A stretch of DNA of 64,000 nt from an uncultured Anaeroplasmataceae bacterium (GCA_910579215.1 CAJTTN010000006.1:57376-121375), one strand, 5' to 3'; positions 1-5,571 are shown, numbered from the stretch's first letter. The notes: generated by a model from the letters alone, not told the origin. A program made the numbers and translations.

Positions 1-3000
1 TTAAATTCAGTTTCTATGAATAATAGCGTAATTGTATCTTTTAACTACGATAAGAAAAAGGGCTTGCTTACAGGACAAACATATGGGTCAGGAGGAACCT
101 ATAATTTTTCTTATAACTCTAAACAGCAAATTACTGATATTCGCTTTAATGGAATTTTGAAGTATCACTATAGCTATGATGTTAATGATCGATTGAAAGA
201 TATTAAGGATGGAACGGGAAATATAATAAAGGCTTATACATATGATAATGATGGACAAGTATTAAAGGCAGAGGAAAAAGAATCAGTTATAGAATATGAA
301 TATAATACGTTAGGAGAAATTAATCGTAAAAAGAGACTGTTAAATTCAAAAACGATCTATGAATCCTATGATAATATTTCTAGTTCTAAAGGTTTTAGTC
401 CAGATAATTTAATTGGATATTTACAGGGAGATACAGACTATTTAGGAACCATGTTTCTTGATTCTGCAGAGTTGAAAAATCCGTTGTATATACTAAGTGC
501 TATAAATTATAATACAAATAATAAAAGTAACCCTATATATATAAGAAAGAAAAAAGTACCATGTGTTCATTGTGGATTATTTAATCCTATGAGTTATAAT
601 CCTCCTATGAAAAATAATACAGAGGATTGTGGAAGTATAGGATTCTGGTTTTATCCTACAAATTTACCTTTGGGCAGTAATAAAAAGTATCTATTTAGTA
701 TAAAGAATAAAACATTGCCATGCTTTGTAGCAGCATATTTCAATAGTTCAGGAAAACTAGTTTTAGAGACTAAAGATTCAAATAATGTAATAGAAACAAG
801 AACTATAGATTCTATAATAAGATTAAATACCTGGAATTTTTTTGGTCTTAATTTCGCATATCGGATAGATGAAGTTGGTACCTCAGGTGGCTTTTCATTT
901 GAACTATACCATAATTCTAAATATTTAAAGGGAACTATAAGCAGAACTATACGTGTGGGATCTATAACTCCATACCACATTGGCTATCGTTTTGATGGAA
1001 CTAAGGGATATGATAGTTTAGAATGTCCTATTACAGCATTAGTGCTAGGAAGAAGATTTTATTTAAGTTCAAAGCAAATGCAAGATTTTTATAGTACAAC
1101 TAAAGATTATATCTTAGGAAATTCTTATTTAGATGAGGATAGTGTCAACTTTAGTTCTACAACCATATACAATCTATCTGAATCTATGTTGAATCAATTT
1201 GAAATATACCCACTACAAAATAATGTAACTTCTTTAAAAGGAAAGAAACCAGTAGTCTTTGATGCAAGAGTTGTAAGTTCTACAGATAAAGATAGGACAT
1301 TTAACTTTAATAATTTAAGTAAAAGATGTGCGTTTATGGCAGAGGGAAATCGATTAGAGTATGATCTAGCTATGAGTCAAACAGGAACCATACTTATGAG
1401 AGCCTTTATAAAGGAGACTATTGATAAGCAATATCTATTAGAATGTAAGGATAGTAAAGGATATACCATTGGATTATATAGAGAATATGATACCTACTTA
1501 AGTATAAAGGTTAATAGTTCAACGATTAAAACAAATTTAAAACTTCCAACAGACATATGGAATACAGTAGGAATATCCTTTACAGAGGGTTCCATATCTT
1601 CTTCGACAGGAGATCAAAAATATTTAACTGTTCGTGTATATTTAAATGGAAATACTTATACAAGTAATATTCAAATTAATACATCCTTTGAATCTTTAAT
1701 TTTATCAGTAGGACGTACAACTAAAAAGGTAAGCATTCAAACTGCAATGGGAACTTATGAAACTTGCTATCCTATGCTAGGTCAAATTGAAATGCTTTCA
1801 ACTCGTGCTGCTTACTGTGAAGTAGAAACATTAAATACGTTGGCTGATGAATTAAAATCAACATCATTCGTATCAGAATATGACGAATTAGGGTTACTAA
1901 ATAAAAGAGCAATAAAAAAAGATAATGAAGATGACGTGATGTCTATTAATTATGAATATAAAAAAAGGTGTACTCCTGAAAGTTATCCTGAAATAGAATG
2001 TTTTATACGAGATGTGGAGCAGCTTTTTGAAATTAAACCAAATGAAAGCTTTACCTTCCAGAAAAATGGGGTCTATATAGGCTATGTTCAAGATGTTCAA
2101 CTATTAAACCCTGATATATTTCATACAAAGGTTGTATGGGATATAAGTGAAGAAGCGCTTGATGATTTTGGAGAGGAAGGACAAACTCATTATTACCATA
2201 TGGACCAAGCCTTCATGTTTTTAGAAAACAATACATGGACAAATACTTCTCAATATAGTATGTTCTTAATAGATTTAGGCTATAGTTTTGGAGATATCTC
2301 CTATATTTCTACTGCTATTAGTAAGGAGACCTATGATACTTATGGTGGCTATCATACAGAACGAACATATAAAACAAATGCCTTAGGTCATATAGAGAGT
2401 ATACAAGATTCTACCTTTGGAAGTCATACCTACAGTTATAATGCACGAGGCTTTTTAACAAAAGAGGACTCTATAAATTATGAATATGATGCAAATGGTA
2501 ATATAACTAAAGTGGGGACAATAACATTTAAATATGACACAACCATCAAGGATAGATTGATACTAGTAAATGGGAAAGAAATATCCTATGGAACCAATTC
2601 ACTTAATCCAAATAGTTACGATGGAATTACTTATGAATGGGAGGGAAGAAGACTAGTAGGCTTATCCAAGCGAGGAGAAACTAAGCATGTATACACCTAT
2701 AATTCAAATGGTCTTAGAATAAGTAAAAGTATTACCAATGAAAATACAAATGAAACAAAAAGAACAAGCTTTTATTATGATGGGGATAAATTAATTACAG
2801 AGATTTCTCCTAATTATAGATTAGACTTCTTATATAATGAAAATGATCAATTATATGGACTTATTTATAATAATGAAAAAAAGTTTTACTACGTTAGAGA
2901 TTTCTTACAAAATATATTAGGCTTAGTAGATAGTGATGGTGAGCTTGTGGTAAAATATGGATATACGGCTTATGGTAAAATCACTTCTATTACAGACACG

Positions 3001-3778: not shown

Positions 3779-5571
3779 GGGGCTGTTAAGAAACTAAAAA
3801 GTTTCTAGCAGCTTCTTTTTTTGTATTTATAAGACTTACGGAGAGATTCATTCACTCCTTTCTTTCGAGTTTTTTTAAAAATCTTATCATAGTCTATTTT
3901 TGGGATAGTTTCAGGTTTCAAATCTATAGGAGCAACCCAATAATCTGTTTTAGCTTTTCCCTCAATCAAAGAAAAGAGTTTTCTAATATTATAGCCAAGA
4001 CAAACCAGCATAAATTCTAAAGAAACGTTTTGAAGACCACGACGCCTAGTTCTATCATAAACCATATCTTGTTTAATAACACCAAAAGCCCCCTCTACTT
4101 GAGAACTCCGATTTACTCTCATCTCAATACCTTTGGGAGATAAAAGGTATTGAGTAACTTTCTTTTTGATTATAGAATAATCATAATTGACATCAAATAT
4201 ACGATAGTTTCTAATCACCTTGAGATTGGCTTGACAATACTTTTTTAATCTACAATAAGAACAAGATTGAATTACATATAAGAAAGATCCCTTGTGAGCA
4301 TATCTATTCTCAAAAAACCTAGTTTTAAGAGCCACTTTATGATTCATACAAATTAAATCTTCATTATCATTAAAGTAAAATAAATCATAAGTGTCACCAG
4401 AAACAACCTTAGCCCAATCAGCAAATTTTATATAGTTTTCAATGTTGTTATTTTGAAGGAAACTATAGTTTTTCAAAGAACCATACCCAGCATCACCACA
4501 AAGCCTTTTTGGGAAAAAGCCATATAATTGATAAAATTTTTGTAGAGTTGGAATTAAAGTATATTGATCTGTTCTATCGCAAGAGATATAAAAGGACAAA
4601 ATAATACCTTTAGAAACGATAATTTGGAAGTTATAAGCCGCATGAGTATTACTGCCTAGACCAGAATAGTAATCTTCTTTAAGACACATAGCAGTAGCAT
4701 CATGGTCAGTTTTAAAGTAAGAATTACGATTTGGACCACAAATTCTTTCTTTTTCTTCATAGTCTAAAAGTTTAATTAAATAAGTAGAAAGTAAAAGATA
4801 ATCAGAAACAATTTTAGGATTACGATGACCTCTACCAATCTTTATAGTATTGATATCTATATTTTGTTTTTTTAAAAGTTCTAGCATTAAAGAGACATAG
4901 GAGGCAACCTCTTTAGAAACGAAAGTAATTTTGTTTTCTGATAGAGGAAAGTATTGGATTAGAAGTAATTTAATTTTATCAAAGAGATTTATTTTAAAAG
5001 TGGTAGGTTTATATACAAATTTATATTTATTAGCATTGGCTTCAATTTTAGTACCATCAATGAAACAATCATCAAAACAGAAATTATACTTTAAGAGGAT
5101 GGTTTTAGTAATAGAGACAAAGATGGCTTCAAAGTGTTTAACAACTATGTTGTTAAGAAACTTAGAAATAGTAACATAGGAAGGGGTTTCTTGATTTAAT
5201 AGGTAAATAAATCTTAAATCAAATTTGATACTTTCCTCAATTTTTCTTAAACTACCTGAATGTTTTGAAAAGGCATAGATAATGGCAGCAAATAAACGAT
5301 ACGGATTATAGGAGTTTCTTCCTCCTAAACTTCTATCCTTATTAGTCTCTTTGTATATAATTTCACCCACACCAGATTCTTCTAATAATCTTAAAAAAGT
5401 ATCTATTTTTTCTCTTTCCCCTCGGTCTAGCTCAGCGGTAGGAAATAAATGGTCTTGAAAGACAGTAAAAAATGGCATGAAAAAACACCTCCAGATACTT
5501 TATTGTATCAAAAAGGTGCATTTTCTAACAAAATGAAGCTGTCAGAAACTTTTTAGTTTCTTAACAGCCCC
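3779..5571 (-). mobile_element. Complete insertion sequence (IS1182-family-like), ~1.79 kb, with perfect 28-bp terminal inverted repeats
   Basis: IRL at 3779-3806 (GGGGCTGTTAAGAAACTAAAAAGTTTCT) is the exact reverse complement of IRR at 5544-5571 (AGAAACTTTTTAGTTTCTTAACAGCCCC). The IRs extend imperfectly inward (cagcttc). A single 557-aa transposase ORF lies between them. No clear target-site duplication is seen. Confidence 0.8.
3805..5478 (-). CDS. DDE transposase (IS1182/IS4-IS5 superfamily-like, DUF772-type N-terminus)
   Basis: 557 aa. The N-terminus (YNPYRLFAAIIYAFSKHSGSLRKIEESIKFDLRFIYLL) is typical of the DUF772 transposase N-domain. The C-terminal ...RGLQNVSLEFMLVCLGYNIRKL is typical of DDE_Tnp_1 ends. 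It is flanked by perfect inverted repeats. Confidence 0.8.
   Translation of the reverse strand: MPFFTVFQDHLFPTAELDRGEREKIDTFLRLLEESGVGEIIYKETNKDRSLGGRNSYNPYRLFAAIIYAFSKHSGSLRKIEESIKFDLRFIYLLNQETPSYVTISKFLNNIVVKHFEAIFVSITKTILLKYNFCFDDCFIDGTKIEANANKYKFVYKPTTFKINLFDKIKLLLIQYFPLSENKITFVSKEVASYVSLMLELLKKQNIDINTIKIGRGHRNPKIVSDYLLLSTYLIKLLDYEEKERICGPNRNSYFKTDHDATAMCLKEDYYSGLGSNTHAAYNFQIIVSKGIILSFYISCDRTDQYTLIPTLQKFYQLYGFFPKRLCGDAGYGSLKNYSFLQNNNIENYIKFADWAKVVSGDTYDLFYFNDNEDLICMNHKVALKTRFFENRYAHKGSFLYVIQSCSYCRLKKYCQANLKVIRNYRIFDVNYDYSIIKKKVTQYLLSPKGIEMRVNRSSQVEGAFGVIKQDMVYDRTRRRGLQNVSLEFMLVCLGYNIRKLFSLIEGKAKTDYWVAPIDLKPETIPKIDYDKIFKKTRKKGVNESLRKSYKYKKRSC

Follow-up and report, generated by a model that had tools for sequence, protein, structure and literature searches.

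An RHS toxin gene with a hydrophobic-tailed tip of an undescribed family, and an insertion sequence in place of its terminator hairpin

The RHS gene at the left end of a 64,000-nucleotide stretch of DNA (the window), from what we describe as a gut Mollicutes-like Bacillota bacterium, ends in a C-terminal domain (the tip) that belongs to a widespread and undescribed RHS-tip family and is not an orphan. The insertion sequence (IS) behind this gene removed only the RHS terminator and arrived independently of the absence of a partner gene. Our preferred explanation, held with moderate confidence, is that the tip acts as a toxin by inserting into membranes and not as an enzyme, that the small membrane partner encoded behind it at other loci is its likely immunity protein, that the IS is an independent event, and that the protein is probably exported with the help of a holin. 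The features of the locus are listed in Table 1, in which L001 denotes the IS-free allele of a related strain.

Table 1. Features of the RHS locus, in window positions unless L001 is named
Feature	Position	Strand	Basis
RHS gene, first 661 codons	left of window; L001 4895..6877		read from the L001 ORF
RHS/YD-repeat toxin gene, final 1242 codons and stop	1..3729	+	open frame running off the left edge
RHS-associated core domain, residues 988-1074	2962..3222	+	TIGR03696
Tip, 168 aa (TNWW...LAFL)	3223..3726	+	member of undescribed RHS-tip family
Trp-rich N-terminal amphipathic helix, tip residues 2-14, NWWTDIWDWFSNT	3226..3264	+	AF2 secondary structure
Nine-stranded antiparallel β-meander, tip residues 15-131	3265..3615	+	predicted
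Hydrophobic C-terminal tail, 36 residues, YPEIVAAAALAVYGLPIIAPALPSIVPALGVVLAFL	3619..3726	+	predicted single long helix
Complete IS1182-family IS, 1793 bp	3779..5571		inverted repeats and junction alignment
IS transposase, 557 aa, DDE type	3805..5478	-	Pfam DDE_Tnp_1_6 (5.3e-21), DUF772
rpmB intrinsic terminator, intact, outside the IS	5653..5675	-	terminator scans, window and L001
rpmB, encoding ribosomal protein L28; converges on the RHS gene	5689..5877	-	ORF translation; same order in L001

The full RHS gene has 1903 codons (a 5.7-kb ORF) and is complete in L001, which is 99.4% identical over the gene, with 24 differences in 3729 nt. A preliminary description of the window had called the product an RHS polymorphic toxin, and domain searches and solved structures agree. 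The shell consists of YD/RHS repeats: Pfam RHS_repeat matches the part of the protein encoded in the window at 2.8e-10 and the full-length protein at 4.6e-30, and TIGR01643 matches too. NCBIfam Rhs_assc_core matches the core domain of the 1242-aa translation at 3.5e-16, and the alignment of the protein with solved Rhs, TcC and teneurin-like chains extends to about residue 1075. The C-terminal end of the core reads '...NLFCYCKNYPVSFSDKCG' and closes in the cleavage-type motif NYPVSFSDKCG, in which PVSFSDKCG is a variant of the autoproteolysis motif PxxxxDPxGL. Both Asp positions (NAD and SDK) are kept, and relatives carry DPSG or DPTG where the window gene has its variant. The sequence PEWCRWLNADN, previously taken for the core terminator, is actually the first Asp motif inside the core; since the core ends later, the C-terminal domain is shorter than the approximately 200 aa first estimated.

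The core of the tip is composed of 12% Gly, 11% Ser, 9% Thr and 6% Tyr. Over its N-terminal helix the family consensus reads xxFWxxIxxWFxxTFG, and most of the predicted β-strands have a hydrophobic face alternating with a polar or Gly/Ser face. The tail is made of Ala, Leu, Pro, Val and Ile with one charged residue, and its Kyte-Doolittle 19-residue maximum is 2.18. AlphaFold (AF2) modeled the tip with a pLDDT of 95.1 and a pTM of 0.78, and the tail helix (residues 133-167) with a pLDDT of about 90. Judged solely by these high pLDDT and pTM values, the tail helix appears to pack against the β-sheet. No match to the tip was found in Pfam, NCBIfam or PHROGs, nor a sequence match in the PDB, and no homology to characterised toxins was found; there were weak fold resemblances to β-barrels, helix-grip lipid binders and Eag/DcrB-type chaperones of transmembrane (TM) helices. 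The preliminary description, which had proposed profile searches and structure prediction for a domain that it could not assign, was therefore right that no described family fits, and the prediction gave a confident β-rich model with a C-terminal helix. The hydrophobic tail that it had noticed is real and recurs in nearly all members of the family, and its suggestion of a membrane-inserting tip is the best reading.

Only an exhaustive HMMER search brought out the tip family. A word-indexed protein search with the tip returned a single 124-aa fragment and its profile version 19 proteins, while the exhaustive search gave 116 cluster representatives at E<=1e-3 and 66 at E<=1e-10, the 116 clusters being defined at 50% identity. 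Genome contigs yielded nothing to a search with the full RHS protein and three loci to a profile search with a ten-sequence tip alignment; viral contigs searched with the tip yielded nothing. Within the family the tip is always C-terminal and mostly follows an RHS core, whose end motif is present in 56 of the 65 members with enough upstream sequence, and the RHS backbones that carry it differ (1469-2262 aa). As expected of the variable C-terminal domain of an RHS toxin, it also occurs as an orphan cassette: in locus L004, tip and partner stand without a promoter inside an RHS orphan array. Across 58 members, conservation reaches 90% at G16, G40, G72, N76 and G87 only, and no conserved catalytic residues are present. 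Among the ten closest sequences K45, K51, D74, E89, S91, H95 and R110 are invariant, and the window tip keeps every residue that is invariant in this close subfamily. Pfam gave no match in the 58 relatives at E<=0.01, nor in selected members at E<=10, and NCBIfam and PHROGs likewise returned nothing for the tip and these relatives.

The position of the IS had been interpreted as the place where the immunity gene should be, and IS-free alleles had been named as the way to recover the ancestral junction. L001 supplies an IS-free junction, and it too lacks an immunity gene. From the RHS stop to the rpmB stop it measures 186 nt, in which the hairpin that terminates the RHS gene and the terminator of rpmB are the sole features. 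The flanks of the window and L001 are collinear with one substitution, and the window lacks the 20-bp hairpin alone: the IS stands exactly in place of this hairpin, CCATCTCAGTAATGAGATGG, without target-site duplication. In the window, 49 nt separate the RHS stop from the IS and 117 nt separate the IS from the rpmB stop; the earlier spacings of 50 bp and about 115 bp located the IS correctly, although the exact values differ. Neither gap contains an ORF of at least 40 aa, which agrees with the earlier remark that there is no room for an immunity ORF.

The element is bounded by perfect 28-nt inverted repeats (3779-3806 and 5544-5571) that can be extended to 43 nt at 93%. Having these terminal repeats and a DDE transposase, it belongs to the IS1182 family, and the best NCBIfam match of the transposase is to IS1182 (transpos_IS1182, 4e-58) with 197.5 bits, below the curated equivalog cutoff of 270 bits. 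No second copy was found in the window or in the loci compared. In Staphylococcus, transposition of IS1272, another member of the IS1182 family, is reported to replace an inverted-repeat hairpin and to leave no target duplication (PMC5678879). The element studied here did the same: its hairpin target was replaced by the element, and no target-site duplication was made. Unlike IS1272, it has a transposase that is only distantly related, about 33% identical by tblastn to the nearest annotated IS1182-family transposases (from Clostridium), and a single insertion was examined. For annotation, this means that a toxin gene flanked by an IS has not necessarily lost an immunity gene, and that IS1182-type elements appear to home to terminator hairpins.

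What the locus lacks can be seen from the other loci of the family. A small membrane protein directly follows the tip in 12/12 other loci, and therefore the tip family normally has a partner. Partners of family A pair with NxPEI-type tips (8/8 loci) and those of family B with YxRTIP-type tips (4/4 loci); an HMM built from five family A partners finds the other three at 2e-14, 2.8e-14 and 8.5e-11, and all partners, as read from their sequences, start with one or two hydrophobic segments. This co-variation between partner family and tip subtype suggests that the small membrane partner is probably the immunity protein of the tip. Neither family was detected in the window or L001, about 74 kb in total, by tblastn and hmmsearch --max at E<0.05. 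The cognate immunity gene that RHS toxins usually have immediately downstream is thus absent from both the window and the IS-free allele. An immunity gene paired elsewhere with the same tip, which the preliminary description had raised as a result that would speak against its reading, probably exists in the 12 other loci, but this species has none at the locus. As a separate observation, the partner in L009 weakly matches the N-terminal domain of the nucleotidyltransferase gene of L001 (E 0.011).

Upstream of the window, the RHS gene proves to be the last of a cassette: before it come genes for a small TM/coiled-coil protein, for a holin of the Phage_holin_5_2 family and for one or two nucleotidyltransferases (NTases) of the Polβ type. 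This holin-NTase-RHS cassette is common to six independent loci, whereas the tip-bearing RHS loci L008 and L018 lack it. In L001 the holin gene (3161..3454) matches Phage_holin_5_2 at 5.1e-15, above the cutoff, and phrog_1129 ('holin') at 1.3e-15, so a phage-type holin gene is indeed part of the toxin operon. No endolysin-like Pfam domain was found in any of the six cassettes. The 1903-aa RHS protein contains RHS_repeat domains only; a T7SS/LXG context or secretion signal, which the preliminary description had suggested looking for upstream, was not found in the full-length protein, and its first 60 residues lack a hydrophobic core of the kind seen in signal peptides. It therefore carries no recognised trafficking module (PAAR/VgrG for T6SS, LXG/WXG for T7SS, or a Sec signal). 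A protein without a signal peptide that is encoded by the last gene of a conserved holin cassette suggests, by gene neighborhood as the sole basis, that export probably depends on the holin. Our literature search returned nothing relevant on a holin/RHS cassette or on RHS proteins in Anaeroplasma. For the export of RHS toxins without T7SS or Sec signals from Gram-positive and wall-less bacteria, this cassette is a concrete and testable candidate.

Selection has maintained the gene. The differences between the window and L001 comprise 16 synonymous and 8 nonsynonymous changes (pN/pS 0.13), none of which falls in the tip, and the RHS gene is under purifying selection. At the same time, the partner is absent at the locus, whether the strain carries the IS or not. 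A missing presumed immunity gene together with purifying selection on the toxin sits awkwardly with a toxin active against kin, and the locus is a naturally occurring example of a polymorphic toxin maintained with no immunity gene next to it.

We propose that the tip would act as a non-enzymatic membrane-inserting toxin that forms pores or depolarises. As long as the tip is packaged, the nine-stranded amphipathic β-sheet would shield the 35-residue Ala/Pro/Gly-rich helix with its hydrophobic face. Upon release from the RHS shell, this hydrophobic helix and the Trp-rich N-terminal helix would enter the target membrane, where in other loci the downstream partner would act as immunity protein. 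Such membrane action is inferred from the composition of the tip, from the structure predicted for it and from the partners being membrane proteins, and the immunity role of the partners is a likely one.

Several other explanations need to be weighed against this proposal. The tip could be a structural or anchoring module, for example a tail anchor in the producer membrane, with the partners serving as assembly or docking proteins. The lack of catalytic residues in the family would fit, as would the single C-terminal TM-like helix, which resembles that of tail-anchored proteins, and the purifying selection on the gene in a species without the partner. We nevertheless regard an anchor as unlikely: the tip occupies the toxin slot right after an RHS cleavage-type motif, tip and partner form a promoter-less orphan cassette in a classic RHS orphan toxin/immunity array, and the strict co-variation of two unrelated partner families with tip subtype is a hallmark of toxin-immunity pairs. 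An enzyme of another type, such as a tail-anchored enzyme modifying lipids or the cell envelope, seems less probable still; what speaks for it is that several polar residues are invariant in the closest ten sequences.

The two remaining alternatives concern the history of the locus. In one, the cognate immunity gene was interrupted or displaced by the IS, as the location of the element directly 3' of the toxin gene (the usual immunity slot) and the lack of space for an ORF might indicate. We give this hardly any credence, because the IS-free junction holds just two terminators and the window lost one hairpin from it, because neither partner family A nor family B has left a trace in the intergenic DNA, and because elements of this IS family normally replace hairpins without duplication (PMC5678879). 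In the other, the locus is a decaying remnant, in which immunity was lost earlier, the first NTase was truncated, the IS landed and the toxin went out of use. The partner is indeed absent, the IS is present in one strain, and the ORF between holin and NTase is only 169 aa long and weakly resembles (E 0.003) the N-terminus of an NTase paralogue that has 278-289 aa in other cassettes. However, the long ORF is unbroken in two strains of an AT-rich genome, the low pN/pS comes with an unchanged tip that keeps all residues invariant in the close subfamily, and the terminator, the holin and the second NTase are intact in L001. The same NTase truncation occurs in L022 and is absent from the almost identical L023, so other loci tolerate it. 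Decay is, in our judgment, improbable.

A wider and more tentative hypothesis, which we put forward as a possibility with more doubt than confidence, is that an undescribed mobile cassette of five to six genes (TM/coiled-coil protein, Phage_holin_5_2 holin, one or two Polβ NTases, RHS protein and membrane immunity protein) would give gut Mollicutes-like and other Bacillota an export route for RHS toxins that is independent of T6SS, T7SS and Sec. Its payload would be a 'self-chaperoned' toxin of a new fold, in which an amphipathic β-sheet carries a TM helix to the target membrane, and which is kept here under selection without an immunity gene. If this is true, the toxin may be harmless to its producer, for example because the producer lacks a receptor or differs in its membrane, or may be aimed at other species or the host. 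The tip structure could then represent a new way to deliver a transmembrane helix in soluble form. In any case, a tip family with 116 clusters, two co-varying partner families and neither a Pfam model nor a structural relative is a candidate toxin-immunity system ready for experiment.

Known systems share parts of this picture. Large toxins are exported in a holin-dependent manner in C. difficile, where TcdE serves TcdA and TcdB, and the holin/endolysin release of Tc toxins is termed 'type 10 secretion'. As in these systems, a very large toxin free of a signal peptide is encoded here beside a phage-type holin. Unlike them, the cassette uses another holin family (Phage_holin_5_2), has no endolysin-like gene in its six instances, and always places one or two Polβ-type NTase genes between the holin and the RHS gene.

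Among membrane-active toxins, a colicin-type or other helical pore-former, an all-α bundle burying a hydrophobic helical hairpin, does not describe the tip. Zhang et al. 2012 list a single pore-forming domain for polymorphic toxins, Tox-WTIP, and describe it as small, with two membrane-spanning helices, RxxR and Wx[ST]IP motifs, and a distribution restricted to proteobacteria (PMC3482391). Tox-WTIP and the tip are both non-catalytic hydrophobic C-terminal domains on RHS and other polymorphic toxins, and one tip subfamily has an 'RTIP' motif just before the hydrophobic helix that recalls Tox-WTIP. By contrast, the tip has about 130 residues of predicted β-structure and one helix, and its hosts are Bacillota or Mollicutes-like. 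The identity with Tox-WTIP that 'RTIP' brought to mind was rejected, given the absence of a Pfam match in family members, the β-rich prediction and the single helix.

The nearest parallel in action may be the Pseudomonas aeruginosa Rhs effector Tse5 (PA2684), whose C-terminus forms pores and is not an enzyme, and whose immunity protein, Tsi5, is a 2-TM protein (PMC9637101). The tip-family profile matched no PDB chain sequence, though Tse5 entries are present in that database. Tse5 belongs to the T6SS effectors of Gram-negative bacteria, starts with a PAAR-like N-terminus and has several predicted TM and amphipathic helices in its C-terminus, whereas the tip is mostly β-structure with one C-terminal helix, and the window locus has neither T6SS context nor an immunity gene. 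What the two have in common is an RHS shell, a C-terminal domain without predicted enzymatic activity, membrane insertion (predicted in our case), and a small integral membrane immunity protein encoded beside the toxin, presumed here from the other loci of the family.

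Frame 1 is open from the first base of the window to the stop codon at 3727-3729, so the RHS gene continues past the left edge. Its missing 5' part, which the preliminary description had proposed to look for, was recovered in L001, an IS-free metagenomic allele, as a full-length ORF (L001 4895..10606) encoding 1903 aa. This full-length protein contains no Pfam domains besides RHS repeats, and no signal-peptide-like N-terminus was found in it. The 1242-aa translation from the window matches Pfam RHS_repeat (2.8e-10) and, at residues 988-1074, NCBIfam Rhs_assc_core (TIGR03696; 3.5e-16), and alignment with solved Rhs, TcC and teneurin-like shells reaches approximately residue 1075. 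The RHS gene, the IS and the spacing to rpmB all proved to be as first described. The boundary of the core had to be moved: PEWCRWLNADN, earlier read as the core terminator, is the first Asp motif inside the core, which has NLFCYCKNYPVSFSDKCG, a variant form of the PxxxxDPxGL cleavage motif, at its end. The C-terminal tip is therefore 168 aa long (nt 3223-3726) and corresponds to residues 1736-1903 of the full-length protein.

Coordinates of the insertion sequence and its surroundings, the predicted tip structure, the L001 cassette and the partner loci
Feature	Position or loci	Description
IS	3779..5571	1793 bp; starts 49 nt past the RHS stop
IS terminal inverted repeats	3779-3806 and 5544-5571	perfect, 28 nt
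IS transposase	minus strand	557 aa, DDE; IS1182 is the best family match
rpmB		convergent with the RHS gene; stop 117 nt beyond the IS
rpmB terminator	5653-5675	rpmB's own
Tip model, helix	residues 2-14	NWWTDIWDWFSNT
Tip model, β-strands	between residues 15 and 131	nine
Tip model, long helix	residues 133-167	single
L001 cassette gene 1		96-aa TM/coiled-coil protein; phrog_1863, 1e-15
L001 cassette gene 2		97-aa holin; Pfam Phage_holin_5_2 5.1e-15, above cutoff; phrog_1129 "holin"
L001 cassette gene 3	3444..3953	169-aa ORF
L001 cassette gene 4		305-aa protein; C-terminal Polβ-type nucleotidyltransferase (NTase) domain
Family-A partners	L007, L008, L009/L013, L010/L011, L012, L016/17, L018/19, L020/21	next to N-x-P-E-I tips
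Family-B partners	L002, L003, L004-6, L022/23	next to Y-x-R-T-I-P tips

No immunity gene adjoins the RHS gene, and the IS had been suspected of having inserted into or replaced it. Scanning metagenomes with the tip gave a single locus, L001 (contig Ga0209694_1000286, 92 kb), whose tip is 100% identical. Across the 3729 shared nt of the RHS gene, L001 differs from the window at 24 positions, and its downstream housekeeping genes are equally close; judged by these sequences, its source is a closely related strain. In L001, 186 nt separate the RHS stop from the rpmB stop, and no ORF of at least 60 aa lies between the two genes. The flanks of the junction are collinear except for one substitution: L001 reads ...AAACTATTTCA, then CCATCTCAGTAATGAGATGG, then TTTTTTCTC, and in the window the same flanks bracket the IS, with a 20-bp palindrome (L001 10656..10675) missing. 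Together with its T-run, this palindrome is the only terminator-like plus-strand site after the RHS gene in L001, and the window lacks it. This 20-bp RHS terminator hairpin is exactly what the IS1182-family element replaced, and no target-site duplication is present. The same behaviour is reported for IS1272, a member of the IS1182 family with inverted-repeat targets and no duplications, for which an "IR-replacing" mechanism was proposed (PMC5678879); hairpin targeting thus accounts for the position of the IS. Annotated Clostridium IS1182-family transposases share 33% identity with the transposase of the window element. In the window, the RHS gene has no terminator-like site from its stop to the IS and is convergent with the transposase gene. 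Loss of an immunity gene to the IS is contradicted by the IS-free allele: the ancestral junction recovered from it holds no immunity ORF, and only the hairpin was replaced. An immunity gene was already missing from this site in the immediate ancestor. The IS is an ordinary bystander.

The tip belongs to a sizeable family. When 1.84 billion cluster representatives were scanned exhaustively with HMMER, 116 proteins matched at E<=1e-3, of which 66 reached <=1e-10 and 4 reached <=1e-30. Apart from three weak outliers, the matched region lies at the C-terminal end of the protein, with no more than a few dozen residues after it. The long members, which measure 1469-2262 aa, are RHS proteins and in some cases carry a Laminin_G_3 insert; the RHS-core end motif precedes the domain in 56 of the 65 members with at least 45 upstream residues. 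The preliminary description had been unable to assign the domain to a toxin family, and this extends to its relatives: none of 58 members matches a Pfam toxin family, and the family profile has no sequence match in the PDB. In the alignment of 58 sequences, conservation of at least 90% is confined to four glycines and one asparagine, so the family has no conserved catalytic constellation. The hydrophobic tail noticed earlier is real, with 36 residues, one charge and a Kyte-Doolittle 19-residue maximum of 2.18 in the window protein, and nearly every family member has such a C-terminal stretch. Some members (P0016, P0023, P0051, P0056 and P0070) carry a repetitive helical linker of W-x-x-D-T-Y-N-D-x-K repeats between core end and tip, which is absent from the window protein. 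A word-indexed search with the tip gave one fragment as its sole match. This fragment (P0001; ENA, 630-bp contig) ends in ...PRSEEHTSELQSQR, a translation of the Illumina TruSeq adapter (AGATCGGAAGAGCACACGTCTGAACTCCAGTCA), and its 3' end is therefore an assembly artefact. A further homologue (39% identity) lies on a 1474-bp contig labelled Inordinaticella fortuita (NSKI01000069.1), very short and high-coverage within the assembly of an unrelated organism; the contig is possibly a contaminant.

We examined the genomic context of twelve tip-family members. A pairing of the same tip with an immunity-like gene elsewhere, which the preliminary description had counted against its reading, is in part what these loci display: a membrane partner follows the tip in 12 of 12, and the partner family tracks the tip subtype. 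Tips of the window's subtype, defined by the motif N-x-P-E-I ahead of the tail, are followed by a protein of 177-212 aa that begins with one or two hydrophobic segments and is otherwise helical and TPR-like (family A); the L013 partner has 188 aa. The gap is 9-183 bp, and 252 bp before the truncated 119-aa ORF of L012. Most family-A partners are detectably homologous to each other, and an HMM built from five of them, including the L010 partner on architecture alone, recovers the remaining three (2e-14, 2.8e-14 and 8.5e-11). The divergent Y-x-R-T-I-P tips are followed by a different protein of ~155 aa with two TM segments (family B), whose HMM matches the L022 partner at 3.3e-22; in L004, tip and partner form an orphan cassette within a typical RHS orphan array. 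Toxin-immunity pairs would be expected to show such covariation, and the membrane nature of the partners suggests the membrane as the site of tip action. Searches of the 64-kb window and the 20-kb L001 locus, using tblastn and unfiltered hmmsearch on all six-frame ORFs, gave no match to either family. A weak tblastn match (34% over 59 aa, at E 0.011 against a small database) links the L009 partner to L001 4180..4356, where the 305-aa NTase has its N-terminal helical domain; this may reflect chance or a distant relationship of two helical domains.

Despite the missing partner, the RHS gene is probably functional, because it differs from that of L001 by 16 synonymous and 8 nonsynonymous changes (pN/pS 0.13), its tip shows no difference of either kind and retains every residue invariant among its ten closest relatives, and an intact 5.7-kb frame already points to constraint in a genome that is AT-rich. 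An immunity gene might be located at another site in the genome; alternatively, the producer could be intrinsically insensitive, or the toxin could be aimed only at other organisms.

AlphaFold2, run on the tip with the 58-sequence alignment, gave a model with pLDDT 95.1 and pTM 0.78. In most of the predicted strands, a hydrophobic face alternates with one that is polar or Gly/Ser. We conclude that none of the solved structures is convincingly related to it; the closest in shape are curved antiparallel sheets surrounding or cradling a hydrophobic element. In a soluble, packaged state, the tail helix would be shielded by the hydrophobic face of the sheet.

A holin-NTase cassette, which we read from L001 2868..4872 and other loci, precedes the RHS gene beyond the left edge of the window. 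The order of small TM protein, holin, one or two NTases, RHS gene with the same tip family and partner recurs in L007, L013, L016/17, L020/21 and L022/23, with 37-76% pairwise identity to the L001 proteins, dropping to about 26% in the NTase of L016, which is more divergent; in L013 and L022 no homologue of the small TM/coiled-coil protein was detected. The NTases span ~280-305 aa, and the motif G-S...S-D-x-D is invariant in all seven aligned. The first NTase appears truncated in some strains: the 169-aa ORF of L001 shows weak similarity to its N-terminus (E 0.003), and it has 133 aa in L022 (6692..7093) versus 274 aa in the otherwise identical L023 (6269..7093). This paralogue may be dispensable. 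Tip-bearing RHS genes without the cassette occur in L008 and L018. The cassette adjoins ArdA, PcfJ and PcfK-like genes of conjugative or mobile elements in L020 (14230..19061), and a resolvase and a recombinase in L016 (17264..18226); these neighbours suggest horizontal movement. Large clostridial toxins and Tc toxins depend on holins for release, and by analogy RHS export is probably holin-dependent. No endolysin-like domain was detected in any cassette, and a literature search found no paper on the holin-NTase-RHS combination.

The window is chromosomal, with the gene order rpmB, DAK2-type gene, recG. The cassette proteins have their closest relatives in MAGs labelled uncultured Anaeroplasmataceae (L013; NTase 76% and RHS N-terminus 56% identical) and Ureaplasma sp. 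(61%), and in a Haloplasma MAG carrying a tip homologue. The host is likely a Mollicutes-like gut bacterium; should it lack a cell wall, release could require nothing beyond a holin.

Overall, the window gene is an RHS polymorphic toxin of a known kind. Its unusual features are an undescribed tip family with probable membrane action, a conserved, undescribed holin-NTase cassette and an RHS gene without an adjacent immunity gene at this locus. Assignment to Tox-WTIP was rejected, as the tip does not match the definition of two TM helices, RxxR and Wx[ST]IP motifs, and proteobacterial origin (PMC3482391). Tse5 of P. aeruginosa is the closest functional parallel: this Rhs effector has a non-enzymatic C-terminus that enters membranes and depolarises cells, and it is neutralised by the 2-TM protein Tsi5 (PMC9637101). 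The window tip is predicted to fold differently, as a β-rich domain with a single helix, and it also differs in phylogenetic range and delivery context; no sequence similarity to Tse5 was detected.
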